Assembly (NCBI GenBank): GCA_964462115.1
Contig: CAYWWA010000002.1
Span: 6,560-70,559 of the forward strand
Origin: an uncultured Candidatus Saccharibacteria bacterium
GTDB taxonomy: Bacteria > Patescibacteriota > Minisyncoccia > Phycocordibacterales > CAIZIN01
Length of the DNA: 64,000 bases
Direction: 5' to 3'
Part shown: positions 17,342 through 60,325 of the stretch, piece after piece
Numbering within the stretch: the first letter of the stretch is position 1
Layout: every line of letters starts with the position of its first letter
Program-made: the position numbers and the translations under genes
Notes under the pieces: generated by a model
What the model saw: only the letters and a program-made list of their open reading frames with translations
Databases searched by the model: none
Told to the model about the DNA's origin: nothing

Positions 17342-17371
17342 CTTGCATTTTTAAATCAAATATGCTATAAT
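17341..17371 (+). promoter_or_regulatory. rplJ promoter: -35 TTGCAT, 17-nt spacer, TGcTATAAT
   Basis: tcTTGCATttttaaatcaaataTGCTATAAT. Confidence 0.5.
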
Positions 17372-17377
17372 TAAAAG

Positions 17378-17512: not shown

Positions 17513-18010
17513 ATGCCAATCAATAAAAGTAAAAAAACAGAAATTTACAACAAGTTAGTTGATGCAAGCAAAGTTGCTCAATCTTGGACTTTTGTAAAAT
17601 TTAACGGCTTAACCGTAGCAGATTCAACTGCTATGCGAAAAGAGCTACGCGAGAAAAATGTAAAATATTTTGTCGCCAAAAAAGCAATTGCTGCTAAGGC
17701 ACTTGCAGAGGCAAAATTTGAAGGAGCACTTCCAGAACTTCCGGGAGAAATTGCATTTGCTTGGAGTGAGGATGCTTTAGCATCTGCACAGGGGGTAAAT
17801 GAATTTGTAAAGAAATTTGCAGATAGGGTTTCAATCGTAGGTGGAGTGTTTGAAGGGAAATATCAAGACGCTATTGCAATGAACGCAATCGCCAATATTC
17901 CTCCACTTCAGACTTTGCGAGGAATGTTTGTCAATATTATCAATTCACCAATCCAGCGATTTGCTATGGTGTTGAGTGAAGTGGCAAAGAAAAAAGAGAC
18001 AACTGCTTAA
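17513..18010 (+). CDS. rplJ: 50S ribosomal protein L10
   Basis: L10-like sequence throughout, positioned directly before rplL. Confidence 0.85.
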   Translation: MPINKSKKTEIYNKLVDASKVAQSWTFVKFNGLTVADSTAMRKELREKNVKYFVAKKAIAAKALAEAKFEGALPELPGEIAFAWSEDALASAQGVNEFVKKFADRVSIVGGVFEGKYQDAIAMNAIANIPPLQTLRGMFVNIINSPIQRFAMVLSEVAKKKETTA

Positions 18011-35356: not shown

Positions 35357-36157
35357 ATGGCAGAGAAACGAAAAACGGTAGGCTTAGTTTTAGGTTCTGG
35401 TGGTGGTAGAGGCATGGCCCATTTTGGCGTTATTAAAACCCTCCAAAAGCATAATATTCCGATTGATTATGTTAGTGGTTCAAGTATTGGTGCCCTAATT
35501 GGTGCCTATTTTGCCCTAAATCAAGAGGTAGACTCTTTAATTGAGATCTTTAAGGCAGCAGTCAAAAAACGCTCTTCTTTCTTTGATTTTGCTGGTAGAA
35601 GAGGTTCAGTCTTGGGCGGCACAAAAATCAAAAAAGTTTTAGAGCAAATTTTTCAAGACCAAACATTTGATAATTTGAAATTGCCTTTTTTAGCAGTCTC
35701 GACCGATCTCGGAAGTGGGGAAGCTATCACTTTAAATTCAGGGAAAATTTTGGAGGCAGTTTTACCGTCAATTAGTATTCCTGGAGTTTTACCGATTTAC
35801 GATCAAAAGCCACCTTATCACTTGGTGGATGGTGGGCTATCTTCGGCCTTACCAATTAAACAAATGTTGGAAAATTTTCAGCCTGATGTTTTAATTATCG
35901 TAGACCTCTACACGCCTAAAAGTAAAACCTCAATCGATTATACTGTGAGTTCAGTTTCTAAAAGAGTTTATGAGTTGACGATTGCAAAATTGTCGCAGAT
36001 TAATATGACTGAAATTGATCGCCCTGCTGCAATTCTATTACCTGATACCAACGAAGATTGGCGCAACTTGTTTTTTGCTCATATTGATGATAATGTGGAA
36101 AAGGGTAGTAAAGAATGTGAAGCAAAAATTTTATCAATCAAGCAATTATTAGAATAA
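35357..36157 (+). CDS. Patatin-like phospholipase
   Basis: GLVLGSGGGRGMAHFG oxyanion hole, GSSIG nucleophile elbow, DGG. Confidence 0.8.
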   Translation: MAEKRKTVGLVLGSGGGRGMAHFGVIKTLQKHNIPIDYVSGSSIGALIGAYFALNQEVDSLIEIFKAAVKKRSSFFDFAGRRGSVLGGTKIKKVLEQIFQDQTFDNLKLPFLAVSTDLGSGEAITLNSGKILEAVLPSISIPGVLPIYDQKPPYHLVDGGLSSALPIKQMLENFQPDVLIIVDLYTPKSKTSIDYTVSSVSKRVYELTIAKLSQINMTEIDRPAAILLPDTNEDWRNLFFAHIDDNVEKGSKECEAKILSIKQLLE

Positions 36158-36314
36158 AAAAATAAATTAAAAACACATGAGCGAAATAACCAACATTTTT
36201 ACCGTAGATTATATTAGTTTAGTCAAAGATTTTTTTAGTTTAGTGACCCAACCAGCTGTCGCACTAGGGCTTTTAGTCTGGGCTTGTTTAAGTTAATAAC
36301 CCAATAAAAAATAT

Positions 36315-36923
36315 ATGAAAAGAAAAGTTATCTTGGCGTCTGGTTCTCCAAGACGTGTTCAAATAATGCAAGAACTGGCCAAGGAGTTACTGTTTGACTT
36401 AGATATCTTGCCTAATGATTATGATGAAGAGATTTTAAAGCAAACAATTTTTGATCCTCAAGAGTTAGTTAAACAACTCTCTTATCAGAAAGCGTTGGCT
36501 ACTTACGATCAAATCAAAAACGTGGCCGATGAAATTATAGTTATTGGTGGTGATACTATTGTGGCTTTCGAAAATGAATTATTGGGCAAGCCTCATACGG
36601 CAGAAAATGCCAAGAAAATGTTAGCGAAACTTTCAGATAAAACTAATCAAATTATTACTGGTTTAAGTATAATTGTCAAAGACCAGCAACAAGAATATTT
36701 AATTCAAGAAATAGGCATCACGGACGTAAAAATGAAAAAAATGACAGCCCTAGAAATAGACGAATACGTATTGACAGGGGAGCCGTTGGATAAAGCTGGA
36801 GCTTTTGCTATTCAAGAACAAGGTTTTAAATTTATTGATAATATATCTGGCAACATAGAATCTTATTATGGAATAGATAAGACAGCAGTAAAGAATCATT
36901 TAAGCAAAATACTAAACAGTTAG
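36315..36923 (+). CDS. maf: Maf-like nucleoside triphosphate pyrophosphatase
   Basis: VILASGSPRR N-terminus. Confidence 0.75.
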   Translation: MKRKVILASGSPRRVQIMQELAKELLFDLDILPNDYDEEILKQTIFDPQELVKQLSYQKALATYDQIKNVADEIIVIGGDTIVAFENELLGKPHTAENAKKMLAKLSDKTNQIITGLSIIVKDQQQEYLIQEIGITDVKMKKMTALEIDEYVLTGEPLDKAGAFAIQEQGFKFIDNISGNIESYYGIDKTAVKNHLSKILNS

Positions 36924-37266
36924 TTTATTTGGGTTTAAAAGGATGGTGGGGCAAGAGCTGGTTGAACCGGTCCTATTTTTATCTAACACTATTTTGTTTA
37001 TTGTTTTAATTTAGTATGTATAAATACTGGGGTAGTTAAATAGATACCATGTTGCACAATATACCTTTTGCAACATCATATCTAAAAAACTATTCATTAA
37101 CCATATAATAATAAATACATATAAGCCAACACCACTAAGTTATTGCTTTAGCTATTCTCGCCATGATTGCGTTTATAGCTTTTTTGGGTGCTGCTATCAA
37201 GTTGATGTTAGGCTATCGCATGGATCTAAAGAATAATAAATGGATCGAGCCTAAGGACTAAACTGC

Positions 37267-38352
37267 TTATGACTTCTTGTGCTTAGAAACACTCATGATA
37301 ATTCCCGCCGCAGTTAACTCAAAGAACAAGGCGGTGCCACCCTGTGAAATAAACGGTAGGTGTTCCCCCAAAATCGGAATAATTCCAGTCATGGAAAAAA
37401 TATTAATTAGTGCTTGGCCAATAAATAACAAAATTATTCCTAAAACAATTAACGAACCAAAAATTTCTGCCTGTAAGGCAATTCTTAAAGCTGAAAATGA
37501 TAGGGAAAGAAAAAGTAGAATTACAACAACACAACCCACAAACCCTAACTCCTCCCCTACTACTGAAAAAATTGAATCGGACTGACTTTCTGGCAAGTTG
37601 CCATATTTTTGGATACTCTGATTATAACCCCGGCCCCAAACACCTCCTGAGCCAAGAGCAATCTTTGACTGATTGGTGTGCCAACAACTTCCTTGAAAAT
37701 TACTATCACAGTTAACAAAACCATCGATTCGGTTGAGTGCATAAGGTGTTTGCCAGATCATCAAGATACCCATCACCACCAGTAGAACTACTGACGGCAC
37801 CCAGATATACCAACGACTCCCAGCTGCCACATACATCACAAACAAAACCACCGCTAAGATAATTACAGTCATTCGGTCGGGTTGTAAAATTAATAAAGTG
37901 CCACCCAGCAGTAACGGCACCAGCCACAACAAAATACCAGAAAGATGTTTAAGTTTGGAATTAAATTCCACCAACAAAAAAGCCACAAAAATAATAGTGG
38001 TAATTTTTAATATCTCGACTGGTTGAAAGGTAAAAAAATAGAGATCCAACCATCTGGTGGAATTATTGAAGGTTGCCCCCAAAGGAGTAAAGACCAAAGC
38101 AGTAATAACTAAAGCCAAGAGATAAGCAATGGTGGCTGTTTTCTTAAATACCAAATAATTTATTTTAGAAAATAGCCAGCATGAAATCAAACCCCCGACA
38201 CAACCTATCACCAAGTGATTAAATAACAAAGCAGGATAGTTACTAGTCTTCAAAAAAAGAGCAGCTGAAGCGGAGTAAAAAAACACTATCCCAACCATCA
38301 ATAGCGCCAGCACCGACCATAAAAACCAAGAATCTATTTTTCCGACTCGCAT
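37267..38352 (-). CDS. ftsW: SEDS-family peptidoglycan polymerase (FtsW/RodA)
   Basis: LPESQSDSIFSVVGEELGFVGCVVVILLF matches the SEDS LPE..TDFIF..GEE.G motif; 10 TM helices. Confidence 0.8.
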   Translation of the reverse strand: MRVGKIDSWFLWSVLALLMVGIVFFYSASAALFLKTSNYPALLFNHLVIGCVGGLISCWLFSKINYLVFKKTATIAYLLALVITALVFTPLGATFNNSTRWLDLYFFTFQPVEILKITTIIFVAFLLVEFNSKLKHLSGILLWLVPLLLGGTLLILQPDRMTVIILAVVLFVMYVAAGSRWYIWVPSVVLLVVMGILMIWQTPYALNRIDGFVNCDSNFQGSCWHTNQSKIALGSGGVWGRGYNQSIQKYGNLPESQSDSIFSVVGEELGFVGCVVVILLFLSLSFSALRIALQAEIFGSLIVLGIILLFIGQALINIFSMTGIIPILGEHLPFISQGGTALFFELTAAGIIMSVSKHKKS

Positions 38353-45041: not shown

Positions 45042-47910
45042 CTACCTGTCTCCACAATAAGCACTATAAAATTCTTCAGCTTTATCTACTCCATCAACAT
45101 AAATTTCCGTTGGCTCCTTACGAAAACCAATGGTGTTAATATTTAAATTATTGATATAAACTGTCCATAAATTATTCAGGGACAGACTGGTTTTATCACA
45201 ATAAAATTTAAGCTTGGATGATTCGCTTAAACAGTCTTGAAATTTACTATCTGTAATATTACTCCAAAGAGTTGAAGCTTGGTAGCTAGCAATTAAATCA
45301 GCTGGCACACAAATTTTTAAGACGTTAGCATCAGTTAGGTTAATAGAGTTATAAGTGGAAGAATAAGGTGTGAGAATGGTTGGACTGTGAAGGTAAGCAG
45401 TAACTTTAGGCGAAGCGGAAGCACCAGCTAATCCAAAAACATTATACATTTTTGCATTTAACATCAACTGAGAACCAGACCAACCCATAAACCAGTCTAT
45501 CTCATTTAATCGACTATTACCATAGTGGAGATAGTGCATAAAATAAGTTCCGATAGAACTTGGTGACCAATCTTTAAGGGGGGTTAAATCTATTGACCGT
45601 TTTAAATAGGTATTATAATTATGAGTATAAGCGAGAAAATAAGTTCCAATACTGCTTGGGCGCCAGTTTTTTAACGGGCTTAAATCTATTACTTCACAAA
45701 CATTGTCTCCAGGATTAGTATAACAGTTATAGCTGTGGGTATAAGCTAAAAAAGAATTAGGTATGCTAGGTATATTCCAATCAGATATTGGTGACAAATC
45801 AATCGGCTTGGTTAGATATGTATTATAATAATGCGTGTAAGCTAAAAAATAAGTAGAAATGCTTGTTGGATTCCAATCATTCATAAAAGATAAATCTAAT
45901 GGTTCAGTCGCTCCGCTATAACCAAAAGTGTAATAGAAAAAATAGCTACTGCCAATATTTGACGGTCTCCAACCTGATAAAACCTGATAACTAGGAACGG
46001 TAAACGATGACGAATTTCCAGCGTAATAAAAAGTGTAATTATTAAAATAATAACCTATGGTGGTAATTCCAGAGATATCACCACCAGCCACTAAGTTAGC
46101 TTCGGTTAAATATCGACAACCGTAAAATAGATGAGACATAAAATAATTTCCAGTGCTGACTCCACTCACAGGTAAAAAACCATAAACCGGTAATTGTTCT
46201 ACTGAAATAACTTTATTTTTATTAGCCTGTAGGTTGGATAAAGTAATTGCCGAGTGAAAACCAAAAGCCGATAGCCAACCGCGAGACGGAGAGGCTGTAG
46301 TTGGATAAATTATTATTGTATGCTGTCCAGTGGATAAACCTGTCAGGTTTATTCCGGTATTAGCCGCTCCAGTTCCAGTATAACGGGCCGCTCCCCCACC
46401 ATCAATTTGGACTAGCCAATCATAGGCGCCACCCAATACCCCTCCGTTATAACCACCGGTTGGGATTGAGAAAGTGCCGTCGGTGGTGCTGACGGTGAAC
46501 TTTAGAGCAAATGGTTCCAACTGTATTAAATCCGCAGCAGAAAAATAATAAACCCTAAAAGTGCCAGTTTGAATAGCGGTATTGCCGATTATATCTTCTA
46601 CCGTCAAAGAATAATTATAGACCACACCATTGTTATCTCCATCGGTGGCACCCAGTAAATTAGTAATATAAATACTATCATTTGGATTAGCCGTAACATT
46701 ATAATTTAACGAAGAGGTTCCATAAGCAAAAGTCATTGTAGCCATCAAGGCACTGGTCTCAACCCGCAAAGACGCTGGTAAACTTTCCTCAAATGAGACT
46801 GAAGTAATTTTAATAGGAGGAATATAGTTTTCATAATATCCATCCCAATATAAGTAAGGATAACCAGCATTATTATTTTCTCCCGCGCAATCTATTTTCC
46901 AAATAGTATTAGCCGAATCAGCGGTGCAAGAAATATCCCAACTTGAAAAAGTTTGTGATGTCTTCATTTGCGCAGTGGTCTTCGGTTGAGTATTACCAGT
47001 AGTGTTAGTATAGCCAGAAAGATTTTGATCATAAAAAGTATTAGTGGTAGTAAACCCCCCATAAGCCTCACCAGTAAAACCACCACAAAGGCCGCCAGCA
47101 CAGGTTACCTGACCAGCAGAATAACAATTAGTGCAAGAACCACCGGTGGAACCCTGTCCAAAACCAGAAGTCCGTCCGTCGAAAGCATAATCCTCAAAAA
47201 CTGAAGAACGAGAATAGGAGTTTGATACTGGCGCATTAATTAATCCAGTAAAACCGCCGTTTTGGCCCCGACGGGCGATTACCTCGTTAAAACTAAACGA
47301 TTCAGAAACAGTATTACTGTTGTAAGCAGTGTGAGCAATTAGACCGGCTACTTGGTTTCCTTCATTGTTGCTGCTGTCTCTATTGCCGGTGATCGTTCCA
47401 CCATTACATCCCACCCTGGTCACTGTAGAATTATTTAACTGCCCCACCAAGCAAGCCACATAACCTATACCAGTGCTATTTGTGTTATACAGTCTTAAAT
47501 TTGAGATGGTGGCACCATTAGTTACACCAAAAAGCGCCTGAAAACCAGAGGTGGCTTGTGTGCCAGTTGGTCTATATAGTGTCAAATTATAAATATTAAA
47601 ATAGTTTCCATTTAGTTGACCAGAAAAAGCTGTAGTGACATTTCCAATCGGCACAAAGCCGGCTCCACTGTTCCAATTTACCGTATCAGAACAATCAACA
47701 TCTTGGGTTAAAATATAATTTAAACCCAAACCTGTAGTATTGATATTTTGTAACTGGGAACAGGTGGAAATTTCATACCAACCATCACTGTTCGAATCTG
47801 TAGGCAAATCCCCAGAATCGTAAGCTGCCAAAATCAAATTGCTTGATAGCAGAAACAAAAAAACCAAAGCGAAAAGGAATTTAATTGGTTTTAGCTTGCC
47901 ACCCATAATC
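45042..47910 (-). CDS. Large secreted/surface protein (~956 aa): GLUG-like beta-helix N-region, C-terminal DUF285/BspA-like repeats
   Basis: Signal peptide; FSGQLNGNYFNIYNLTLYR resembles the F.G.fdGnGhtI.NL beta-helix start motif; C-terminal ~32-aa repeats IDLSPLKNWRPSSIGTYFLAYTHNYNTYL; start taken after the minus-strand TGCTATAAT at 47928-47936. Confidence 0.55.
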
Positions 47911-47927
47911 ATAAAACTATGCATGTT

Positions 47928-47984: not shown

Positions 47985-49844
47985 TTAATTATTCTTTTTC
48001 TTTCTTTTCAGCATGCGCTCCAGATATTGACCAGTGTAAGATCCAGTTTTTTTCCAAGTGTCCGCCACTGTCTCTGGTGTGCCTTTAGCGATCAATTTTC
48101 CTCCTCCGATTCCTCCCTCAGGACCAATGTCAATTATATAGTCAGCACATTTAAGAAAATCTAAGTTGTGTTCAATCACCACCACCGAGTTTCCTTTATC
48201 CACCAATTTTTGCAGAATCTCAATTAGCTTTTTCACATCTTCATAATGCAAACCAACTGTGGGCTCATCTAAAAGATAAATAGTTTTTTGTAAATTCTGA
48301 CGGTATAATTCAGCAGAGATTTTGACTCGCTGTGCTTCTCCACCTGAAAGTTCAGTGGCGGGTTGACCTAATTTAATATAACCCAAACCCACATCTTGTA
48401 AGGTAATTAAACGATCGTGGATGGCTGGTATGTCTTGAAAAAAATCCACCGCCTCATCTATCGTCATTGCTAAAACATCGTGAATATTTTTCTTCTTGTA
48501 TTTTATTTCCAAAGTTTCTTTGGTAAACCTTTTACCATCACAAATATCGCATCTAACAAAGACACTCGGTAAAAACGACATCTCCACCTCAATCATCCCA
48601 TTGCCTTCACAGGCTTCACATCTACCGCCCGGCACGTTAAAAGAAAATCTTCCTGGTCCCCAACCGCGAACTTTAGCCTCATCGGCGTTAGCAAATAAAT
48701 CACGAATATGAGTTAAGGCTCCCACATATGATACTGGATTACTACGGGGGGTGCGTCCGATTGGCGACTGATCAATTAAAATTGTTCGTCCTAAATATCC
48801 CGCACCTTCAAAATTACTACAATTAAAAAATTTAGCGCTGCGGTGTTTTTTTTCTAACTGTCCTTGTAAATTTTTATGAATAATTTCATACATTAAAGAT
48901 GACTTTCCACTGCCCGAAACTCCAGTAATACAAACCAATTTTGAAAGTGGAATTTCTAAGTTTAAGTTTTTAATGTTAAAAATATTACCGCCAGTAATTT
49001 TTATTTTCCCCCGATCTTGAGTCCGTCGGTCTGGAATATCAATCTGATCCTCTCCACGTAAATAGGCCAAAGTTTTAGATCCGCTGTCATTTTTTTTGGC
49101 ATCTAATAATTGATCCACCCAACCAGAGACCACTACTTCACCACCATGCACTCCAGCTTTGGGCCCGACATCAACAATATAATCTGAAGCAAAAATAGTA
49201 TCCTCGTCATGTTCTACCACCACAATTGTATTACCCATATCACGCAAATCGGTAATAGTTTTGATTAACTTATCGTTGTCTCGCTGATGCAAACCAATCG
49301 TTGGTTCATCCAAAACATACAAAGCTCCGACTAAACCACTGCCCAGCTGTGAAGCTAGGCGGATTCGCTGAGTTTCGCCACCAGATAGAGTTGTCGCTCG
49401 TCTATCCAGAGAAAGATATTCAATCCCTACGTTAGTCATAAATTTGAGTCGTTCTACAATTTCTTTGATGGGGATTTTGGCAATCTCCATTTCTTGTTCA
49501 GAAAGTTGCTGAACTAAGTCAGTAAAAAATTTTTGGCTATCGGTAATAGTTTTTTCGGTCAGCTTCATAATATTCATTTTATCCTTGCTGTCGCCTAAAA
49601 AAATACTTAAAGCTTCTGGTCGCAATCTTTGGCCGTGACAAACTGAACATTCTTCATTCACAAAGAATTCTCTAGTGCCTAAGCCGTTACATTCAGGACA
49701 GGCTCCATAGGGTGAATTAAAAGAAAAAAGTCTCGGCTCAATTTCAGGAAAAGAAAACCCATCATAAGGACACATGAATTTTGCCGAAATCATTTTGTAG
49801 TCGTAGTTTATTTTTTTATTTTTAGAGTCGGGCCGAGTTGACAT
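47985..49844 (-). CDS. uvrA: UvrA C-terminal fragment (619 aa: Zn-finger insertion region, end of ABC module I, complete ABC module II)
   Basis: CPYDGFSFPEIEPRLFSFNSPYGACPECNGLG, LSGGETQRIRLASQLGSGLVGALYVLDEPTIGLH, second Walker [29 protein letters not shown]; resumes where the fragment at 59408-60325 stops. Confidence 0.8.
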   Translation of the reverse strand: MSTRPDSKNKKINYDYKMISAKFMCPYDGFSFPEIEPRLFSFNSPYGACPECNGLGTREFFVNEECSVCHGQRLRPEALSIFLGDSKDKMNIMKLTEKTITDSQKFFTDLVQQLSEQEMEIAKIPIKEIVERLKFMTNVGIEYLSLDRRATTLSGGETQRIRLASQLGSGLVGALYVLDEPTIGLHQRDNDKLIKTITDLRDMGNTIVVVEHDEDTIFASDYIVDVGPKAGVHGGEVVVSGWVDQLLDAKKNDSGSKTLAYLRGEDQIDIPDRRTQDRGKIKITGGNIFNIKNLNLEIPLSKLVCITGVSGSGKSSLMYEIIHKNLQGQLEKKHRSAKFFNCSNFEGAGYLGRTILIDQSPIGRTPRSNPVSYVGALTHIRDLFANADEAKVRGWGPGRFSFNVPGGRCEACEGNGMIEVEMSFLPSVFVRCDICDGKRFTKETLEIKYKKKNIHDVLAMTIDEAVDFFQDIPAIHDRLITLQDVGLGYIKLGQPATELSGGEAQRVKISAELYRQNLQKTIYLLDEPTVGLHYEDVKKLIEILQKLVDKGNSVVVIEHNLDFLKCADYIIDIGPEGGIGGGKLIAKGTPETVADTWKKTGSYTGQYLERMLKRKKKNN

Positions 49845-50033: not shown

Positions 50034-50690
50034 ATGAACAACAACTTCATCAAATATGCGGAAAAATATGCCAAGGTTAACCTTACAGAAGCCCAAACAG
50101 ATAAATTTCAAGCCTTGGCGGATTTTTTATTAAGTTATAATCAAAAAGTTAATTTAACCGCTATTCGTGATTTAGATGGAGTTTATCTTAAACATTTTAT
50201 AGATAGTTTGACTGTCAATTTAGCTGTGAGCGAAATTGAAAAAGCTGGGACCAAAATTCAAAACCTTGCCGACGTCGGCAGCGGTGCCGGCTTCCCCGCC
50301 CTGCCTTTAGCTATTATCTATGAAGATAAAAAAATTACCGCTATTGATTCTGTTGGTAAAAAAACTAAATTTATTAGCGAAGCAGCGAAAATTTTAGGAT
50401 TAGAAAATATAAAAGTCATCAACGATCGAGCGGAAAAAATTGTCCTTCAAAAGTTCGGTTTAGTTGTCTCGCGTGCCGTAGCCCAACTGCCCCAACTTTT
50501 AGACTGGTGTCTACCACTAGTAAAAAATGGCGGCTATTTTGTGGCAATGAAAAATGCTGAAACTTCAGACCAAGAAATATCTGACTCTCAGAAAAATCTT
50601 CAACAATCTTCAGTGGAAATAATCAATCGCTTTAAGATTGAGATTCCAAATCTTACCAATCGCGAACTAATAATTTGTAAAAAAAAATAA
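50034..50690 (+). CDS. rsmG: 16S rRNA (guanine527-N7)-methyltransferase RsmG/GidB
   Basis: LADVGSGAGFPALPLAI SAM motif; TGCTATAAT at 49998-50006 upstream. Confidence 0.8.
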   Translation: MNNNFIKYAEKYAKVNLTEAQTDKFQALADFLLSYNQKVNLTAIRDLDGVYLKHFIDSLTVNLAVSEIEKAGTKIQNLADVGSGAGFPALPLAIIYEDKKITAIDSVGKKTKFISEAAKILGLENIKVINDRAEKIVLQKFGLVVSRAVAQLPQLLDWCLPLVKNGGYFVAMKNAETSDQEISDSQKNLQQSSVEIINRFKIEIPNLTNRELIICKKK

Positions 50691-50766: not shown

Positions 50767-53700
50767 TTACTTTTCTACCACAAAAGTATTTCCTCTACTT
50801 CTACCAAAAATATCCGGCATATATAAAGATTCAATTTTGGCAGGCAGGTGTTGATATTTTCCAGGTACCAATGCTCGCAAATAATACTCATATTGATAAA
50901 CACCGCTGTTTACTCTTTCACTGTATAAGAAAATTCTGTCATCGTGATTCTCCTCTACGCTTGGATAAAATCTGTTATCAAGTGAAGTGTGTCTAATTAA
51001 ACTTTGATCTTCAGTTGCAAAACTGAAGTTAACAATTTCAAAACCAGCTGGAATATAATCTTCTATTGCAATGTCAGCTGCATTAAACGGCACTGTTAAA
51101 GTTAATCTGCCTTTAATTACATCACCAACTTTAGCAGAAAGAATTGGAATCTTTTGCTCTTCATCATCAAGGCGGAAAAATTCACGAACGACACCCAAAC
51201 CTTCGTCACGAGCTGGTAAATTTTGTACAGGTAAATAATACTTAAACAGTATATCGTAATAGAAATTATTTTTATTTTTAGTATTATCAATTTTTAAGAA
51301 AGTTAACGGCAAAACTTTTTTACGCTCTAGATCATTTATTGACAAGAATTGACTTTGTGTTTCAAAAATATTTTGACCACCAAAATTAAAATTAAATAAT
51401 TCATCACCGTTTAATGTACCAATTAAATCAAAGTCTGCCTCGTTTTCTTTTTGCCATTTCAGATATTGCACCATTGCATCTATCACTTCAAAAGTGTTCT
51501 GTGTGTTACCCCACGCACCCTGATTGTTTCGGCTAGCCAAAAGCCATTTCATGATATTGGAAATCATTACATTTTTATCTTGATGAGCCACAAATACTTT
51601 CAGAGCCAGTGCGGTATTTTTAATAGAGGTTTCATAGAGATTATAGCTGGTATTTTTACCAGGCTTAAAATACGCACCACGACCATCAATGGAAAGTCTG
51701 TTAGTGAATTGCTTATAAATTTCCTGATTATTAGGATACATAATAGCCAAATAAGCTAAAGCTGGACTGCTGATATTTTCGTTTAGATATTGTTTATCAC
51801 TTATAAAGCTTGATACGATAGAATTAATTACTGTATATTTTTTACCTGAAAGATTCAATAAGAATCCAGCTCCAATCAAAGTGTCTTTATCTATTTCTCT
51901 TTGTGTATAACGATTATTTGCTTCGGTTTCAATATATTTTAATGCTTTATTTAAATATTCTTCATCTATTGCAAATCCTGCATTTTTAATAACCAACAGC
52001 CCCTCTACCACCCGCAACGTTAGATAAAAATTTGAATAATAAATTGATGGATAATAAGAAAATCCACCATCCAATTTTTGAGTGGCATAAATTTTCTTAA
52101 GTGTAGAATTTATAATATCATCAATTGTGTAATCAATTCCATCTTTGTTAATTGTTCCAATTTCCCCATCAACATTTTTCAAGTCATAGACGCTACTCAA
52201 AATAGCAACAGAACTCATCGCAGAAGTTAACTGCTCAGAACAACCATAAGGATAATTAACCATGTATTTTAGAGCGTCTTGTAAAAAGACAACTAAGGTA
52301 GCATTGGTATTTATAGTTATTCCACCTTTATCTGCAAGAACATTCTCAGGTATATAAAAATATTCTTTAGAAATATTTTGGTTAGTCATATTGGCTGTCG
52401 ATACTGTTTCGTAAGTTTGGTTTGGGGTAATTTTTATTGTTTGTTCTACTTCATCAACACTATCATTTAATTCAGCTTTCAAAGTAAAAGTAACTTGACC
52501 TTCTACTAATGTTGTCGGTGCTTCAACGTTAAAATAAATTATTTCTGATTTACCAGCATTGATTTTAATTATTCGTTCAGTTTTTTCCAGCAAGTTTAAA
52601 TCCTTACTTTGCAAAGAAACCTTTACACTTACAGACTTATTAGTTTGATTGAAAACCGTAGCTCCCAATTCAAAATTATCACCAGGTACTATAAATCTTG
52701 GTTTAATCGGCGAAACCATTAAATCTTTTTTTGTAGTAAATTCAGCGTAGCTCGCACCAAATTTTGAATCTAAACTTTGAGCTACAACCTCTGCTTGCCA
52801 AGTTGTTAAATTGTCTGGTAAAGTGAAAGAAAGTTGGGTTAACCCTTTTTGATCGGTTTCTGCTTGAGCTATCCAGAAAGCAGTATCTTTAAATTCACCA
52901 CGTTTCTTTGAAGCTAAATCTTCTGCACCATTTCCGCCACCACCACCCTTCGTTCCTGTTGGTATATCCATTTCGTATAAAATATTTTTTAAGTTATGAG
53001 TAGTATTAATGGTATTATAAAAATAATTATAAAAATGAAGCCAAGGGTTTTTCTTTGGATTTCCCTTGAGAGCCAAAACCGACATATCAACTACCGCAAC
53101 AGAAACTTCAGACTGAACGGGGTTATTTTTTTCATCTTTCGATTCAATTTGCAAATTCACATTCTCACCTGGCAGATAAAATGTTTTATCACTTTTAACT
53201 GACAAAAATATTTTCTTTGCATCAGAATTAACACCAAAATCCACATTCCCAAATTTAATCTCTGGTTCATCTGTTAGAAGCAAAACCGATACAAAAATAT
53301 TTGGAGCATAATTTTCTTTAATTAAGAAACTGTATTCTGCTAATCCACCGATCACATCTATAATTTTATAATCAAAAATTACTCCCCGCTCAATTGTAAT
53401 CAGTGCTTTTGCTTTAGCTGCTGGGGATTTAATCAAAATCGTAGCCATATCTCCAACTTTAAGCTCATTTTTTTCTACTACTAAATCTAAACTGTAATTA
53501 TTGTTAGGTGGAACTTGCACGGTTTTATCGCCGTAAATATATAGACTAATAGTGGTGCTGATGTTATTTTTTCTATTATCGCTGCCAACAATTTCAATTT
53601 CATATTCGCCCTCTTCGGCTATTGAAAAATCATTAATGTAGTTGCCGTTTTTATCAGTACCAAGTTTTATCGTTTTAACTTCAGTTGTACTTTTATCATA

Positions 53701-56700
53701 ATGATAATAATAACCACCATCAACCTCTTGTCGTTTATAAATTTCGTAAGAAATTTTTTTAATCTTTGCTATTAAATTAGAAACTGAAATTGGCTTACCA
53801 AAAGTGTCAACAGTTTTAATCCTTAACTTATTTTCACCATCAACATTGGTGTAATATTTATCAGTTTTAGCACCAATGTAATATTCGCCTCTATGTACTA
53901 TAAAAGATTTTTGAATGGAAATTGTTTTACCACTAGCGTCTTGCACCGAAACAGAAACTGTGATTATTTTACTTTTTTCATCATTATCAGATAATTTTAA
54001 TTCTTGTTTAATTATCGCTTGACCATCAGTATTTAAACTGGTTTCACCACGTAATAAATATTTATCACCATAATCACAATTATAGCAATAATACCAACCG
54101 CTTCCAAAGGAAAAATATTCATCAGTATATTTATCAAAATAATAATCTTGCTCAGTAATAGTATAAGAAACATTTCCGCTATCAAGCGGTACACCAAAAT
54201 AATAATCAGCTTGGAGAGATAAATTTAAAGTATCACCACTTAAATATTCCTCCTTATCCGTGACAGCTTCCAGTTTGAAAGCAGCTGGAGTATATTCTTC
54301 TACTGAAAAGTTAAAATATCCATCACTAGCGGTGTTAATCTGATAGCTCCCCAATTTAGCGTCTTTTGGTAAAGTAAATTCACCAGCGAAAGAGCCATAT
54401 TTATTATTTTTTAAAGTTGTTGCAAAAACTTGATCCCAACCTGAATCACGAATAGAGACTTGGATTTCTTGGTCTTTTAGTATCTCATAATTTCCATCAA
54501 AACCAAGTCGTTGTATACCCTTAAAATAAACCACATCACCTGGACGATAAATTGGTCTATCAGTGTAAAGATATGTTTTGAGTGCGTATTCTGCAGTGGT
54601 CCAATTTGAACCAAGCGTATCAGCCCAGTCAGAAATGATTGCATTTTCATTATTATAACTAATTACCGCACCATCAACATAGTTTTCAATTTTAAGTTTC
54701 GCGATTCCATCTTGGTCAGTAAAATTAGTGTCAGATAAAGTTAAGCCATCTCCAAACGCTGTTTGGTCCCAAATTCCATTAACATGCTTATATTGAGATA
54801 CTATCGCACCAGCTATTGGTAACAATGTTTTAGCGTTATTAACCCAATAGATATTTTTACTATTTTCAATTAGATTATCTTGTGGTTTAATTTTTTCTTC
54901 ATAATGGTCACGATTAACTTCTTTTTTGCCGACCGCCAAGTTAGAAACGCTTAAATAAACATGTTCGAACCTCGGTACCTCAAAATCCTCTGCATAGTAA
55001 TCACTCACATAAGTGTAATCTGGATTGTTTAATGTGATAACAAATTGTCCACGAGTGTCAGCAAAATAATCTTTCAAATCAATTTGAAAATAATTATTTA
55101 CAAAATATGTTTTCGGTAAATCAATTCTAGCTGTTTTAATTTCAGTACATTTGTTAGGAGCTGGTTGCTTAATACTTAAACTACCTAATACTTCTAAGAA
55201 GTCAGTCGCATTCATTTTGCAAATTTGTAAATCAACAAAAGTTAAATTCTCTACAGCAAAAGTTAATTTAGTTTTATCTGGTGTGGTAACATTATATTGC
55301 TTTTGTAAATTGTAAATATGTTTATATATGTGTTTCGGTTTAGTGGTGTTAAATTCTAAACTTTGATTTATTTTTTGACCAAACACATCTTCCAAATTTA
55401 AATTCATCAAATAATAACTTTCTGGCAATAAACCATATTTAATACTGGTCTGATATTGACCATTTTGACACTGATTATAGTCGCCTTCTACCATATATGA
55501 TCCTCTCCAGTTATTATAAACTATATAATTTTCCACCACACTCAGGTGCGTCCTCATACCCTCCTCACCTGGTTTTTTAATTGGAGAATTAGAACAAATT
55601 ATCATCTCTGTCAGAGAAGCATCTTTGTCATTATTTTTAGGCAAAGTGTTGTAAATTTGAAATTTAGGATAGGTAGTAAAATGTCCGCTGACATTATCGG
55701 CTTTAGAAATGTATTCAGATCCATCGGATAAAACAATTTTTGGTAAAATGATTTGTAGTTGTTCATTCAAACCAAATTCGTTAGCATTAAAAGAAAGAAC
55801 AATTCTCTGTTTATCATCAACTTTAATACATTCATCTGTTAATCCATTTTTTATTTCTCGCAAATAACCATCTTTATCAGTTTCAGTTTTACAATTCTGT
55901 TGATATTCAACTTTTTTTAAACCCTTAACCTTAAACTCTGTTTTGTCTTTATTTATTTCCTCTGTAAAAACTACTTCAATTTGATCATTAGGATCAAAAA
56001 TATTTTTATCACCACTGTAACCATTTTGGGTAATAATATTAAAACCAGATAAAATATTACCAACAAAGAAAGAATAATTCTGTGAATCACTAAATGGCAA
56101 GTTACCTTTTAGTGTAGAAACCAAACCGACTTTGACGCTGTAGGAAGTATCATAATCCCAGGATTTTTTATGTCCATACTTATCTGTTTTCTGATAAATA
56201 TTTATTTTTGATTTATCTTCGACCTCTAAATATTTTTTAGCTTTTTTGTCATATTTTTTACTCGTGCCATATTCTAAAATAATTTCACTTTTATCACCAC
56301 TGGAGGTGGTAATTTCAATGTCACTCTTAATGCTATCAATATCCACTTCTTGATTGTAGTGCAAGAAAAATGGCGATTTATGAGAGATCTTTTCACTTGT
56401 TTTATTATCCAATCTTAAATGTCGAGTATCAAAAGTAAAAGAAACTGGATCCACAGTTAATCCCTCGATGGAAGTTAGCTGACCAATCTCAACCGTATAG
56501 CGAGTAGCTGGATTAAGTTTATCTTTTGGTAAAAATTGTAACTGACGAGTAGTAGTCCACTTCCATTTTCCATCAACTTTTGGACTGATAGAAATCGGTA
56601 GATTATTTTTTGGCTCTGAAAATGCAGCCGCGACCTGTGCTAACAAGCCCTCACCGTTTTCTTGTTGATCGAGAGTTGTTAAAGCTACCATTGGTCGATT

Positions 56701-57201
56701 AAAGACGATGGTAATCTTTGTATCTTCATCTACCTCTGTATTTTGCTCTGGAAAAACTGCTTCAATTTTAGGATTTTCTGCTACCAAAATATCACCAGAC
56801 ATTTTTAAATTAGCTGTTTCTAGAGAAACATTATAGTAAGTTCCAATTTCTAAATCCTTTTTCGGTTTATAAAGAAGAGCTTGTTCTAAATTATCCCCTT
56901 CAATCTCTACCCAATCACCAGCTATTTTAGGTTCAAAAGAAATATTTTCACGAGCTTCATCTGAAGTAATTTCATTTGGTAATTTAATAGTAATAACCGC
57001 CGATTTAGAAATTGACTCCGGCACAAAGGTTTCCACCACTGCTACTTCTCCAGTATATTTTTTAACACTGTGATCAGAAATATAAAAAGAAAAAAATATA
57101 ATTAAAATCAATGAAATAAAAGTAGAAATAATAATAAAAATCGGCTTGTTTCTGTTTTTATTTTCAACAGACAAACCGGAAACCATTTCTTGATTTTTCA
57201 T
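50767..57201 (-). CDS. Bacterial alpha-2-macroglobulin family protein (2144 aa) with N-terminal TM anchor and thioester motif
   Basis: NYPYGCSEQLTSAM (CxEQ thioester), very large beta-rich ectodomain, divergent from a pbpC-like gene as in yfhM-pbpC; ATG at 57201 sits 6 nt after a TGCTATAAT. Confidence 0.75.
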   Translation of the reverse strand: MKNQEMVSGLSVENKNRNKPIFIIISTFISLILIIFFSFYISDHSVKKYTGEVAVVETFVPESISKSAVITIKLPNEITSDEARENISFEPKIAGDWVEIEGDNLEQALLYKPKKDLEIGTYYNVSLETANLKMSGDILVAENPKIEAVFPEQNTEVDEDTKITIVFNRPMVALTTLDQQENGEGLLAQVAAAFSEPKNNLPISISPKVDGKWKWTTTRQLQFLPKDKLNPATRYTVEIGQLTSIEGLTVDPVSFTFDTRHLRLDNKTSEKISHKSPFFLHYNQEVDIDSIKSDIEITTSSGDKSEIILEYGTSKKYDKKAKKYLEVEDKSKINIYQKTDKYGHKKSWDYDTSYSVKVGLVSTLKGNLPFSDSQNYSFFVGNILSGFNIITQNGYSGDKNIFDPNDQIEVVFTEEINKDKTEFKVKGLKKVEYQQNCKTETDKDGYLREIKNGLTDECIKVDDKQRIVLSFNANEFGLNEQLQIILPKIVLSDGSEYISKADNVSGHFTTYPKFQIYNTLPKNNDKDASLTEMIICSNSPIKKPGEEGMRTHLSVVENYIVYNNWRGSYMVEGDYNQCQNGQYQTSIKYGLLPESYYLMNLNLEDVFGQKINQSLEFNTTKPKHIYKHIYNLQKQYNVTTPDKTKLTFAVENLTFVDLQICKMNATDFLEVLGSLSIKQPAPNKCTEIKTARIDLPKTYFVNNYFQIDLKDYFADTRGQFVITLNNPDYTYVSDYYAEDFEVPRFEHVYLSVSNLAVGKKEVNRDHYEEKIKPQDNLIENSKNIYWVNNAKTLLPIAGAIVSQYKHVNGIWDQTAFGDGLTLSDTNFTDQDGIAKLKIENYVDGAVISYNNENAIISDWADTLGSNWTTAEYALKTYLYTDRPIYRPGDVVYFKGIQRLGFDGNYEILKDQEIQVSIRDSGWDQVFATTLKNNKYGSFAGEFTLPKDAKLGSYQINTASDGYFNFSVEEYTPAAFKLEAVTDKEEYLSGDTLNLSLQADYYFGVPLDSGNVSYTITEQDYYFDKYTDEYFSFGSGWYYCYNCDYGDKYLLRGETSLNTDGQAIIKQELKLSDNDEKSKIITVSVSVQDASGKTISIQKSFIVHRGEYYIGAKTDKYYTNVDGENKLRIKTVDTFGKPISVSNLIAKIKKISYEIYKRQEVDGGYYYHYDKSTTEVKTIKLGTDKNGNYINDFSIAEEGEYEIEIVGSDNRKNNISTTISLYIYGDKTVQVPPNNNYSLDLVVEKNELKVGDMATILIKSPAAKAKALITIERGVIFDYKIIDVIGGLAEYSFLIKENYAPNIFVSVLLLTDEPEIKFGNVDFGVNSDAKKIFLSVKSDKTFYLPGENVNLQIESKDEKNNPVQSEVSVAVVDMSVLALKGNPKKNPWLHFYNYFYNTINTTHNLKNILYEMDIPTGTKGGGGGNGAEDLASKKRGEFKDTAFWIAQAETDQKGLTQLSFTLPDNLTTWQAEVVAQSLDSKFGASYAEFTTKKDLMVSPIKPRFIVPGDNFELGATVFNQTNKSVSVKVSLQSKDLNLLEKTERIIKINAGKSEIIYFNVEAPTTLVEGQVTFTLKAELNDSVDEVEQTIKITPNQTYETVSTANMTNQNISKEYFYIPENVLADKGGITINTNATLVVFLQDALKYMVNYPYGCSEQLTSAMSSVAILSSVYDLKNVDGEIGTINKDGIDYTIDDIINSTLKKIYATQKLDGGFSYYPSIYYSNFYLTLRVVEGLLVIKNAGFAIDEEYLNKALKYIETEANNRYTQREIDKDTLIGAGFLLNLSGKKYTVINSIVSSFISDKQYLNENISSPALAYLAIMYPNNQEIYKQFTNRLSIDGRGAYFKPGKNTSYNLYETSIKNTALALKVFVAHQDKNVMISNIMKWLLASRNNQGAWGNTQNTFEVIDAMVQYLKWQKENEADFDLIGTLNGDELFNFNFGGQNIFETQSQFLSINDLERKKVLPLTFLKIDNTKNKNNFYYDILFKYYLPVQNLPARDEGLGVVREFFRLDDEEQKIPILSAKVGDVIKGRLTLTVPFNAADIAIEDYIPAGFEIVNFSFATEDQSLIRHTSLDNRFYPSVEENHDDRIFLYSERVNSGVYQYEYYLRALVPGKYQHLPAKIESLYMPDIFGRSRGNTFVVEK

Positions 57202-57207
57202 CACTCA

Positions 57208-57216
57208 ATTATAGCA
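57208..57216 (-). promoter_or_regulatory. Extended -10 TGCTATAAT 6 nt upstream of the A2M ATG
   Basis: Reverse complement gives gtttTGCTATAATtgagtgATG. Confidence 0.45.
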
Positions 57217-57278
57217 AAACCAGTACAAAAAAACTGCTTTTTGTGTAAAAGTATTTTTGTGATATGATTTAGCTGTAA

Positions 57279-59393
57279 ATGAAGATTTTTTTGAAAAAAA
57301 TTAAAAAATATAAAAAAAAATTATCTATCTTCTCTATTTTTATCATTATTTTTTTTAGTTTTTCTCTATTTTTATTATTTGACATAAAAGAAAAATATCA
57401 AAACAATTTATCCGTAATCATATATGACAGGAACGAAGAAATTATTTCCATCAAAACAAATATTAAAGATCATTATGTCTATGAAACCAAAGAAATACCA
57501 GATGATTTAGAAAAATTACTACTCAAGAAAGAAGATAGATATTTTTACTGGCATTTTGGAGTTAACCCAGTCAGCAACCTGCGAGCGTTGTGGCAGATTT
57601 CAACCATTCAAAAACATGGCGGGGCCTCCACCATTACCCAACAACTAGCTAAAAACCTACTTGGCAACGAAAATAATCGAACATTTTATAATAAAATCAA
57701 AGAATTATTCTACACTTTTAATTTAGAATTATTTTTTTCTAAAAAAGAAATTTTAACAATGTATGCTAATACTACTTTTTTTGGCAATCAAGCTCAGGGT
57801 TTTGAAACAGCATCACGCATGTATTTCAATAAAGATCTAGCCAAACTAAATCACAATGAGCAAATTTCTTTGCTTGCCACAATCTCTTATCCCAATAATC
57901 GTAACCCATGGAAAGATAGCGAACAAAAATTTGCTACAGCTTTAAATCAACAGATCTCGCCAGACGAAACTTTTACAAAACCGCTGATCAATAAAAATTT
58001 TAATTTTCAAAATGAAGCCAATTTTGAATTAAGCTCTATTGGATTTTCTTGCGAAAAAAGCTGCCGCACCACTATAGATGTAAAAATTACTGAAAAAATT
58101 CGTCAAATTATTAAAGAGTATACCGACAAAGAAAGTTCGCGCGGTGCAAAAAATTCCTCTGTGGTTGTGATTGATCCCAGAAGTGAAGAAATAATTGCTA
58201 TAGTTGGTAGTGTAGATCCTAGTTCTACAAGAAATGGTAATAAAATAAATATGGCAATTAAACCGCGACCGATCGGTTCCACTATCAAACCATTAATGTA
58301 TCTTAAGGGTTTTGAAGATGGTTTGAGACCTTATACCATAGTAGAAGATCGTGAATATAAATATCAAATCGGACTTGGGTTCGCCCAATATCCCAAAAAC
58401 TATGACGGAGCATATCAAGGAGAGGTTTCTCTACATTATGCCTTAAGCAACTCTCTTAATGTACCGTCTGTTAAAGTTTTGGAATATATTGGTTTAGAAA
58501 AATTTTACAATTTTTTAGATCAAAAATTAAAATTTGAACCAATTCAAGATTATGATAATTATCAATATGGTATCGCTCTTGGTGGTCTAGAAATGGACTT
58601 AACTACCCTCACCCACTATTTTACTATTTTTCCACGTTTAGGAAATATCGCCCCGCTTAAGATTTCAACTGATGGGCAAAATAATTTTAAATTGGCTCCA
58701 CAAAATAAAATTGAATCATATCAAGAAATTTCTGATAAAAAATATGTAGCACTAATTCATAAAATAATTTCTGATCGTCTTACTGGTGTTGGTCAATTTT
58801 CACTGGAAAGTTCGCTCAATTTGCCAATAAAAGATTATGGAGTTAAGACCGGAACCTCTCGCGATTGGCATGATTCGTGGGTTGTTGGATATACCGGTGA
58901 TTTTGTTGTGGGGGTTTGGGTTGGTAATACAGAAAACACTTCACTGCAACAAATTTCTGGCGCCCAAGGAGCTGGAGTTGTTTGGAATCAAGTAATGAAC
59001 CTAATGATTAATTCAAAATATAACCACCAAACATCCATTAATACAAGCGATGTTATGCCAATTAAAATCAATAATTCTATTGAATGGGGCCTTACTGATG
59101 ACGATATTGAATTAAGTAAAAATCTGATGAAAGAAGATATTTTAATCTTGTCACCACACGACGAAGATAAGTTTGAATTTGAAAAAACAAAATCTATCCC
59201 ACTAAAAAGTTCACAGCTAGTAGAGTGGACCATTAAAAAACTAACTAACACTGGCGACAAAATTATCTTTTCCGACAGTAAAAAAGAAAGTTTTTGGCAA
59301 CCAAGCGAATCTGGTTATTATCAAATTTTTGCTAAAAATCCGGAAACAAATTTTTCTCAAACTATCTATATTAAAATTCAAGCCGATAAATAG
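57279..59393 (+). CDS. pbpC: Class A penicillin-binding protein (GT51 transglycosylase plus transpeptidase), PbpC-like
   Basis: GT51 motifs EDRYFYWHFG, GGSTITQQLAKNL, KEILTMYANTTFFG; transpeptidase SIGSTIKP (SxxK), SNS, KTGTS; 704 aa; adjacent to A2M. Confidence 0.75.
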   Translation: MKIFLKKIKKYKKKLSIFSIFIIIFFSFSLFLLFDIKEKYQNNLSVIIYDRNEEIISIKTNIKDHYVYETKEIPDDLEKLLLKKEDRYFYWHFGVNPVSNLRALWQISTIQKHGGASTITQQLAKNLLGNENNRTFYNKIKELFYTFNLELFFSKKEILTMYANTTFFGNQAQGFETASRMYFNKDLAKLNHNEQISLLATISYPNNRNPWKDSEQKFATALNQQISPDETFTKPLINKNFNFQNEANFELSSIGFSCEKSCRTTIDVKITEKIRQIIKEYTDKESSRGAKNSSVVVIDPRSEEIIAIVGSVDPSSTRNGNKINMAIKPRPIGSTIKPLMYLKGFEDGLRPYTIVEDREYKYQIGLGFAQYPKNYDGAYQGEVSLHYALSNSLNVPSVKVLEYIGLEKFYNFLDQKLKFEPIQDYDNYQYGIALGGLEMDLTTLTHYFTIFPRLGNIAPLKISTDGQNNFKLAPQNKIESYQEISDKKYVALIHKIISDRLTGVGQFSLESSLNLPIKDYGVKTGTSRDWHDSWVVGYTGDFVVGVWVGNTENTSLQQISGAQGAGVVWNQVMNLMINSKYNHQTSINTSDVMPIKINNSIEWGLTDDDIELSKNLMKEDILILSPHDEDKFEFEKTKSIPLKSSQLVEWTIKKLTNTGDKIIFSDSKKESFWQPSESGYYQIFAKNPETNFSQTIYIKIQADK

Positions 59394-59407: not shown

Positions 59408-60325
59408 TTATTCACTTTTAGGAATCCCCAACTGGATTAAACCATCACTTTCTTCCAAACATTTTTCAATCGCTTCAGATAATCTTTCCTTAATTCCTTC
59501 TGCCTTGTAGTTGTTGGCCATCTTTTTAATTTCAGAAATATAAAATTCATCCACCAAAACCGCGATATCGTGTTTTTTGTTTTTAGCTAAGTCAATCCGT
59601 TCACGAAGTTTTTGTTCTGCTCCATCAATCAAAACGTCTTCATAGCCTTTGCTCAATAAATCATACAGCAGTTGGTAATATTCACCCTTACGCCCAACCA
59701 CTAGCGGGGCGTAAAGTTTAATTTTTAAATCATTAACTTCCACCCCAAAGACTTTTTTATCAATTTTACTTGTATCAATCTCTCGCACTAATTTAATGAT
59801 GGTTTGTAAAATTTCTTCACGAGATAGTTTTTTAATTTCACGACCACATTCCAAACAGTGTGGTTTACCAATTCGAGCGTATAAAACTCGTAGGTAGTCA
59901 TAAATTTCAGTGATGGTAGCAACAGTCGAACGCGGATTGTTGGAGTGAGTTTTTTGATCAATTGAAATTGCAGGAGATAAACCAGTAATTTCATCAACAT
60001 CTGGTTTTTGCATTTGATGTAAAAAACGACGAGCATAAGAAGATAAACTTTCCATATATCGCCTCTGCCCTTCCGCAAAAATAGTATCGAAAGCCAAAGA
60101 TGATTTTCCTGAACCAGACAAGCCGGTGATAGCTACAATTTTATTTCGTGGCATTTCCACCGTGATATTTTTCAGATTATGAGTCCTGGCTCCTTTCACT
60201 ACGATTTTATCATCTACTTCTCGTCCAGCCACTGTTTTTTTGCTAGATTTTATTTTTTTTTCACTCTCAGCATGAAAAAGCCGACTAGAACCGCTTGCAG
60301 CCTTATCTTGGACTTTCTTTGACAT
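59408..60325 (-). CDS. uvrA: UvrA N-terminal fragment (305 aa: first Walker A, UvrB-binding/insertion region)
   Basis: [60 protein letters not shown]; ends at the point where the 47985-49844 ORF resumes; TGaTATACT 9 nt upstream of ATG. Confidence 0.8.

Follow-up and report, generated by a model that had tools for sequence, protein, structure and literature searches.

A transmembrane-anchored type I alpha-2-macroglobulin beside a PBP1c-like penicillin-binding protein in the Candidate Phyla Radiation

The A2M-PBP gene pair and the architecture of its products

We analysed a 64,000-nucleotide stretch (the window) of contig CAYWWA010000002.1, which derives from an uncultured Candidatus Saccharibacteria bacterium of the Candidate Phyla Radiation (CPR; Patescibacteria); all nucleotide coordinates below are positions in this window. 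Near its end lie two adjacent genes, one encoding a very large alpha-2-macroglobulin (A2M) that carries a thioester motif and the other a class A penicillin-binding protein (PBP) that most resembles PBP1c. The initial annotation of this DNA had described the two genes as divergent, and the coordinates of their open reading frames (ORFs) agree, as the two genes are transcribed in opposite directions, outward from a shared spacer of 74 bp. A scan for promoters and terminators around the pair yielded no enrichment over shuffled sequences, and for this reason we make no promoter or regulatory claim. The features of the pair are as follows.

50767-57204, minus strand: A2M gene; ORF of 2145 codons from GTG, giving 2144 aa from the ATG at 57201
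57205-57278, no strand: spacer of 74 bp between the A2M and PBP start codons, genes head-to-head
57279-59393, plus strand: PBP1c-like gene; ORF of 704 aa
57076-57141, minus strand: transmembrane (TM) anchor of the A2M, residues 21-42, IFIIISTFISLILIIFFSFYIS, a 22-residue hydrophobic helix behind a basic cytoplasmic tail (translation and hydropathy)
54817-57072, minus strand: clade-specific N-terminal all-beta module, residues 44-795 (AlphaFold2 (AF2), hhalign, phmmer)
52294-54816, minus strand: conserved macroglobulin (MG) core, residues 796-1636, comprising MG3-like, MG2 (Pfam), bMG5, bMG6, bait-region domain, MG7 (Pfam A2M) and the predicted first half of CUB (Pfam, hhalign to ECAM 316-1639, AF2 with Foldseek)
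52930-53010, minus strand: predicted bait loop, residues 1398-1424, INTTHNLKNILYEMDIPTGTKGGGGGN, then ...LASKKRGEF (low model confidence, alignment to the ECAM/SaA2M bait)
51451-52293, minus strand: thioester domain (TED), residues 1637-1917, an alpha/alpha toroid (AF2 helical block at model residues 532-812, Pfam TED_complement, Foldseek)
52231-52254, minus strand: YPYGCSEQ, residues 1650-1657, with the Cys1654 and Gln1657 thioester pair and the lock equivalent Tyr1650
50770-51450, minus strand: predicted C-terminal half of CUB with MG8/bMG10, residues 1918-2144 (Pfam bMG10, AF2 beta domains)
57465-57926, plus strand: GT51 domain of the PBP (Pfam Transgly, 150.7 bits)
58158-58898, plus strand: transpeptidase domain of the PBP (Pfam Transpeptidase, 58.5 bits)
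59031-59384, plus strand: putative BiPBP_C-like C-terminal domain of the PBP (profile of the C-terminal regions of CPR orthologues)

The larger gene had been read as encoding a 2144-residue protein with an N-terminal TM helix, a beta-rich ectodomain and the signature GCSEQ, and each of these elements was recovered from the translation, the Pfam scan or the AF2 models. The initial annotation had added that the CSEQ match might prove incidental, in an unrelated beta-rich surface protein devoid of MG or thioester-domain matches. The hidden Markov model (HMM) search that it proposed instead returned MG, thioester and C-terminal bMG10 models; seven Pfam models in all passed their gathering thresholds, and they follow the canonical order.

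Residues 142-259 of the A2M: Big_5
Residues 876-960: MG2
Residues 1114-1215: bMG6
Residues 1238-1378: A2M_BRD
Residues 1440-1530: A2M (MG7)
Residues 1857-1913: TED_complement
Residues 2001-2130: bMG10

The Pfam CUB model has no match in the protein, and the presence of a CUB domain is suggested by beta segments that lie on either side of the TED in the AF2 model. The closest solved relatives by sequence are Salmonella SaA2M (PDB 4u48, E 3e-22) and, after it, E. coli ECAM/YfhM. Because YPYGCSEQLTS of the window protein aligns column for column with YPYGCLEQTTS at the thioester site of SaA2M (4u48), its CxEQ motif is not a chance match. Tyr1650 aligns with the SaA2M lock residue Tyr1175, which is mutated in 4u4j (Y1175G), and the lock position is occupied by Y or F in all aligned orthologues that retain CxEQ. 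The protein does not fit the type II class (MagD/YfaS), as it possesses CxEQ and its neighbours are rsmG, the PBP gene and two pieces of uvrA. MagD/YfaS resembles it in its macroglobulin fold and bait region (PMC5764988), but lacks CxEQ and is encoded in a six-gene mag operon, whereas the window A2M has CxEQ and a PBP1c neighbour; the 'YfaS' labels that JGI gives to homologues of the window protein are generic COG names. Judged from its sequence, the protein is therefore a type I (thioester) bacterial A2M with a TM helix as its anchor. No lipobox Cys came up in a scan for hydropathy and lipoboxes, the first Cys of the protein lying beyond residue 430, and the likely topology is a short cytoplasmic tail, one TM helix and approximately 2100 residues outside the cytoplasmic membrane.

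To describe the fold, the ectodomain was modelled with AF2 in two halves (residues 44-1105 and 1106-2144) using alignments of homologues. The first half is predicted to be all-beta, with a mean predicted local distance difference test score (pLDDT) of 85.7, and the second (mean pLDDT 85.1) to consist of beta domains and a helical toroid of ~280 residues at 1637-1917. A comparison with ECAM and SaA2M had been suggested from the outset, and Foldseek searches against the PDB indeed place native SaA2M (4u48) and native ECAM (5a42) first for both halves. The C-terminal half matches native SaA2M/ECAM with an E-value of 4e-52 and a TMq of 0.55, as compared to 0.34-0.36 for protease-activated ECAM, and reaches a TMt of 0.75 against 4ziu, a native ECAM fragment that extends from MG7 to the C-terminus. 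The model of the window A2M thus resembles ECAM/YfhM and SaA2M in their native state. The protein follows their domain order from the MG3-like domain on (MG, bait-region, MG7, CUB, TED, MG10), and it shares with them the YPYGC-x-EQ thioester site with its lock Tyr, a bait with a Gly run and basic residues, a tether to the cytoplasmic membrane and an adjacent gene of the PBP1c type; identity in the structure-based (Foldseek) alignment is ~16%. It differs from ECAM and SaA2M in that it has a TM helix in place of their lipoprotein anchor, and an N-terminal module of ~750 aa in place of their ~270-aa MG1-MG2, to which it has no detectable sequence similarity.

In the C-terminal model, pLDDT falls below 50 over just one long segment, the loop at residues 1398-1424, and this loop sits at the position of the ECAM/SaA2M bait; where the window protein has this loop, ECAM carries the similar sequence GGDGDELKRGGK (hhalign). 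Among CPR orthologues the loop is conserved like the domains that flank it, following the pattern I-P-x-G-T-K-G-G-G-G...[DE]-L-A-x-K-K-R-G. Such conservation, unlike what is seen in metazoan baits, hints at a restricted class of target.

The additional length of the window A2M lies at its N-terminus, because the hhalign alignment of the CPR family profile to YfhM starts only at window residue ~796 (ECAM 316), and from there window residues ~796-2144 run along YfhM 316-1639 with a probability of 100%. Approximately 750 ectodomain residues thus stand where ECAM has ~270 (MG1-MG2), a surplus of ~480-490 aa. The statement in the initial annotation that the protein is about 500 aa larger than ECAM is correct as a measurement, since it exceeds E. 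coli YfhM (1653 aa) by 491 aa, and sizes near 2000 aa are also common in A2Ms outside the CPR. Proteins of ~1900-2050 aa from Myxococcaceae, Anaerolineae, Acidobacteriota, Desulfuromonas and a cyanobacterium are of similar size, possess an N-terminal Big_5-type domain and mostly retain CxEQ; they are 22-29% identical over ~60-75% of the window A2M, share no more than approximately the first 250 aa of the module, and bear signal peptides or lipoboxes where the window A2M has its TM anchor. In the AF2 model the module appears to hold about six beta-sandwich domains, Big_5 included, ahead of the MG3-like domain. Six of the nine cysteines of the protein fall within it (437/458, 536/578 and 661/685), each 96-98% conserved in orthologues, a pattern consistent with three disulfides outside the cytoplasm. 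When residues 44-795 were searched exhaustively with phmmer against 1.84 billion cluster representatives (50% identity), the search returned ~90 clusters at E<=1e-30, in which the complete proteins are ~2100-2370 aa long and nearly all match end to end, the remainder being fragments; weaker matches are limited to about the first 250 residues of the module, where Big_5 lies. As end-to-end matches are confined to these ~90 clusters, the complete module is specific to the clade. From what is generally known of the CPR envelope, it probably serves as a stalk or spacer that keeps the rest of the protein off the membrane, in a cell that is believed to have no outer membrane.

A stalk of this kind would also give reach, and the protein could be a covalent adhesin or tagging factor whose thioester, as in complement C3 or the insect thioester-containing proteins (TEPs), attaches the episymbiont to its host or marks the host. 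The Foldseek alignment of the C-terminal half does show a fold common to C3, C5, TEP1 and CD109, the protein is giant and surface-anchored in an episymbiont lineage, and giant CPR surface proteins are generally read as host-interaction factors (PMC8080830, PMC13059738). We nevertheless regard this function as very improbable, since the nearest structures and sequences are bacterial protease-trap A2Ms rather than opsonins, the bait-region domain and its loop are kept, and the conserved partner is PBP1c, as in free-living Gram-negative bacteria.

The neighbouring gene had been called a class A PBP of the PbpC type, and the domain content of its 704-aa product bears this out. A TM anchor is followed by the GT51 domain, the transpeptidase domain and a putative C-terminal BiPBP_C-like domain, and the catalytic motifs (EDRYF..H, GASTITQQ, STIK, SLN and KTGTS) are intact. 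The top NCBIfam model is PBP_1c (TIGR02073) with 387.1 bits, as compared to 315.5 bits for PBP_1a_fam, and JGI names several close homologues 'penicillin-binding protein 1C' or 'PbpC'. The protein resembles E. coli PbpC in its GT51 and transpeptidase domains, in the motifs EDRxF, SxxK, SxN and KTG and in lying adjacent to a type I A2M; it differs in being 66 aa shorter, in its identity of 26% (over 519 aa) and in scoring below the equivalog cutoff. At the C-terminus, BiPBP_C was detected in 27 of 55 A2M-linked CPR PBP orthologues, and residues 585-702 of the window PBP score 89.7 bits against a profile of the C-terminal regions of CPR orthologues. This profile in turn gives a weak match to E. 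coli PbpC 712-758, which lies inside BiPBP_C (8 bits; two-sequence search, E=3e-4), and with hhalign the CPR PBP profile aligned to E. coli PbpC in the catalytic core alone. We consider the neighbour, from its sequence, to be a bifunctional class A PBP that can be called PBP1c-like, its score falling short of the level for strict equivalog membership. Pfam, NCBIfam and the alignments to PDB entries together support the earlier proposal that the locus recapitulates the yfhM-pbpC module, here as a type I A2M beside a PBP1c-like class A PBP.

Distribution and linkage of the pair in Patescibacteria

The initial annotation had regarded an A2M of this kind as unusual for a reduced, CPR-like genome, a view that the distribution of the family contradicts. 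When one genome for each GTDB species was scanned, stretches coding for a relative of the window A2M turned up in at least 459 species-level genomes; the total of 459 stretches is a lower bound, because the scan used only two peptide patterns. Nearly all of the best 80 of these 459 stretches are labelled as Patescibacteria lineages, a few others having evidently loose bin labels. The labels of these 80 include Paceibacteria, Parcubacteria and Peregrinibacteria, as well as Kaiser-, Morani-, Falkow-, Ryan-, Sung-, Doudna-, Nomura-, Taylor-, Adler-, Nealson- and Staskawiczbacteria. A word-indexed protein search retrieved ~50 full-length orthologues of 2090-2250 aa that are 31-46% identical to the window A2M, from sources named, among others, Pacebacteria, Peregrinibacteria, Staskawiczbacteria, Gribaldobacteria and 'Patescibacteria group'. 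In the hydropathy and lipobox scan, the CPR orthologues carry a TM stretch at the N-terminus and none of them has a lipobox; several relatives from outside the CPR do have one. CxEQ is retained in 47 of 51 aligned orthologues, mostly as [YF]PYGC[STA]EQ. The orthologues P0006, P0023, P0050 and P0053 have lost the motif and kept their full length, which parallels the split between type I and type II within one clade.

Large A2M-domain membrane proteins have been described before in one member of the CPR, the predator Vampirococcus lugosii, whose Vamp_6_203 (2368 aa) and Vamp_19_245 (1895 aa) we liken to the window protein by their description; protection against host proteases was proposed for them (PMC8080830). 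That study treats the two proteins without an analysis of thioester, PBP linkage or family distribution, and our literature search turned up no description of the distribution or PBP linkage of the family in CPR.

A survey of A2M-pbpC pairs, which the initial annotation had recommended, was carried out on the 80 best related loci, with the PBP placed by tblastn; the flanks of 7 were too short, leaving 73 informative loci, predominantly of Patescibacteria. At 70 of the 73, no more than ~5 kb separates the PBP from the A2M. The two genes are arranged tail-to-tail at 65 of the 70 linked loci, 47 of these 65 with a separation of no more than 400 bp. The PBP is co-directional and downstream of the A2M in 3 loci, like the E. 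coli yfhM-pbpC operon, and co-directional and upstream in 2. None of the 73 informative relatives is divergent, and the window, with its head-to-head genes, is the sole divergent case seen. Because its relatives are tail-to-tail and never divergent, the layout in the window looks like a local rearrangement and no property of the family. The persistence of the linkage amid scrambled gene order, even though the genes are not co-transcribed, argues for functional coupling of A2M and PBP1c.

All-against-all clustering of the ORFs from the 80 loci revealed just two conserved families, the A2M (in 78) and the PBP (in 70), the next family being present in 14. This third family is MltG/YceG, a peptidoglycan enzyme. 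At ~11 of the 80 loci, MltG/YceG lies directly upstream of the A2M and in the same direction, forming an mltG-A2M / PBP1c cell-wall cluster; the 64-kb window itself contains no MltG gene.

L062:8870-9844: MltG/YceG example
L057:8920-9924: MltG/YceG example
L020, L027, L028, L038, L039, L042, L071, L074 and L077: ~9 further loci with MltG/YceG

An alternative to defence is that the A2M would serve cell-wall homeostasis: alongside PBP1c, and in some lineages MltG, it would control the peptidoglycan endopeptidases of the cell itself or of its partner. In that case the conserved bait would be a decoy, speculatively for trypsin-like or glycyl-glycine (M23-type) endopeptidases. In its favour, conservation of the bait loop equals that of the domains around it, a similar bait occurs in ECAM, and the sole recurrent neighbours are peptidoglycan enzymes (PBP1c at 70 loci, MltG at ~11-14). 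The clustering of the 80 loci, however, shows no peptidase gene conserved beside the A2M-PBP pair, and the type I A2Ms that have been characterised trap foreign proteases in vitro (PMC5764988). We judge this function to be unlikely.

The split uvrA gene and the surroundings of the pair

The pair had also been placed inside a split uvrA locus. Two pieces of uvrA do flank a block of 9.56 kb that contains the pair, but the block is not made up of the pair alone, as rsmG also lies inside it.

50034-50690, plus strand: rsmG (GidB), the third gene of the block that parts the uvrA pieces
59408-60325, minus strand: uvrA N-terminal piece, 305 aa, with Walker A of the first nucleotide-binding domain (NBD-I) and the UvrB-interaction domain
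47985-49844, minus strand: uvrA C-terminal piece, 619 aa

When aligned to solved UvrA structures, the 305-aa piece corresponds to the N-terminus through the UvrB-interaction domain and the 619-aa piece to the remainder; the insertion domain of Geobacillus stearothermophilus UvrA (~304-416 of PDB 2r6f) is missing in the window pieces and in the intact relative at locus L062. As compared to this intact uvrA, the end of the N-terminal part (...PKSE) meets the start of homology in the C-terminal part (...NYDYKMIS) with an overlap of ~3 residues, and the C-terminal part begins with a novel leader of 12 residues. The two ORFs could together make a working two-piece UvrA, or they could stem from a recent disruption or from misassembly. 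An origin of the block as a mobile element is unsupported: searches of its junctions found no repeats, target-site duplication or inverted repeats, and no integrase or transposase is present within the rsmG-A2M-PBP block. We also considered whether a split uvrA is a habit of the lineage and set this aside, as the homologue search returned mostly fragments at contig ends and the sole internal case examined differs. In that case (L082:10001-12610, on a JGI contig of 118 kb), a related uvrA is called as two genes owing to one in-frame stop after codon 336, elsewhere than the split in the window; the stop may be a sequencing error, a pseudogene mutation or recoding.

Both the divergent orientation and the location within uvrA are peculiar to this contig. 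As the contig is metagenome-assembled, the divergent pair inside uvrA might itself be an assembly artefact, in which case both genes would still be real. The absence of this layout from the 73 informative relatives is consistent with an artefact, as is the want of a close relative that could confirm the junctions, the nearest A2M being 46% identical. The A2M and PBP genes further have the lowest GC content at third codon positions (GC3) among the nearby genes (0.22 and 0.25, respectively; window mean 0.30, sd 0.04), a signal of mild strength. Against this, the break in uvrA is precise, and both pieces have kept an intact ORF, with 69-76% identity to homologues and no decay; there are no junction repeats to mislead an assembler; and the same protein, of 2139 aa, is recorded on an NCBI contig of 83.8 kb. 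We therefore hold an artefact to be quite unlikely.

Other features of the window were noted in passing. An ORF of 960 aa at 45042-47924 on the minus strand carries a signal peptide, with BspA-like repeats (IGTYFLAYTH...) at its C-terminus, has no Pfam match at a useful E-value, and is probably another CPR surface protein. The sign of the GC skew changes at ~36000-37300, with the maximum of the cumulative skew near 36 kb, and gene orientation switches from plus to minus between 36923 and 37267, which together with the skew change forms a terminus-like signature. An Rfam L10_leader match at 17366-17502 on the plus strand (46.7 bits against a gathering score of 44) lies upstream of the ORF at 17513-18010.

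A proposed surface-held protease trap and its significance

Taken with the likeness of the window A2M to ECAM and SaA2M, the linkage data lead us to propose that the protein probably acts as a surface-held protease trap with a PBP1c-like partner. By homology with ECAM/SaA2M, an endopeptidase would cut the exposed, flexible bait loop at residues ~1398-1436, and this cleavage would cause the A2M to rearrange and release its TED. The buried thioester that Cys1654 and Gln1657 are predicted to form, shielded in the native state by Tyr1650, would thereby be exposed and cross-link the attacking protease, which would then be held at the cell surface. The PBP1c-like partner would presumably rebuild peptidoglycan where the envelope had been attacked. 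This follows the coupling model for Gram-negative bacteria, in which proteases are inhibited and peptidoglycan is repaired within the periplasm (PMC5764988 and PMC3735191, which cite Budd et al. 2004). Protection of the episymbiont envelope against host proteases, as advanced earlier for Vampirococcus (PMC8080830), is a plausible purpose.

Several observations weigh against the proposed trap and its partnership with the PBP. Cells of the CPR are thought to lack an outer membrane, and the 'periplasmic' logic of E. coli is for that reason not directly transferable to them. Neither here nor in most relatives are the two genes co-transcribed, and the coupling is seen as conserved proximity alone. 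The score of the window PBP (387.1 bits) is below the trusted cutoff of TIGR02073 (494.2), and the Pfam BiPBP_C model (PF06832) is undetected in this protein, even at E=10 or with the C-terminus searched alone. CxEQ has been lost in 4 of the 51 aligned orthologues. Finally, a bait that is conserved rather than hypervariable fits a narrow range of proteases or an endogenous target equally with broad defence.

A type I A2M with PBP1c is a known system that is common in the CPR lineage, and the pairing is known from Gram-negatives. What the CPR version adds is a set of modest variations, namely a TM in place of a lipid anchor, the clade-specific N-terminal module of ~750 aa, and a linkage that is tail-to-tail and non-operonic. 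For annotation the value is ordinary, as standard HMMs already call an A2M family protein. A bolder view, which we think rather unlikely, is that A2M-PBP1c is an ancient, largely vertical envelope module of the Patescibacteria that works without an outer membrane, and in which the stalked, TM-anchored A2M of this clade has a role other than generic protease defence. The A2M could bond covalently to the host surface through its thioester, or its conserved bait, with the Gly run and Lys/Arg residues, could divert endopeptidases that lyse peptidoglycan during episymbiosis. If true, this view would count against the older notion that bacteria acquired their A2Ms recently from metazoan hosts.

The broader interest of the locus, with the protease trap as our preferred interpretation, lies in the company that its two genes keep. 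A thioester A2M and a PBP1c-like synthase stay together over dozens of divergent CPR lineages in which gene order is otherwise scrambled, and this linkage is some of the strongest genomic support known to us for the functional coupling of A2M and PBP1c, a hypothesis since 2004. The support comes from cells that are believed to be without a periplasm bounded by an outer membrane. The pair also offers a defined candidate for the means by which episymbionts protect their envelope, or attach it.

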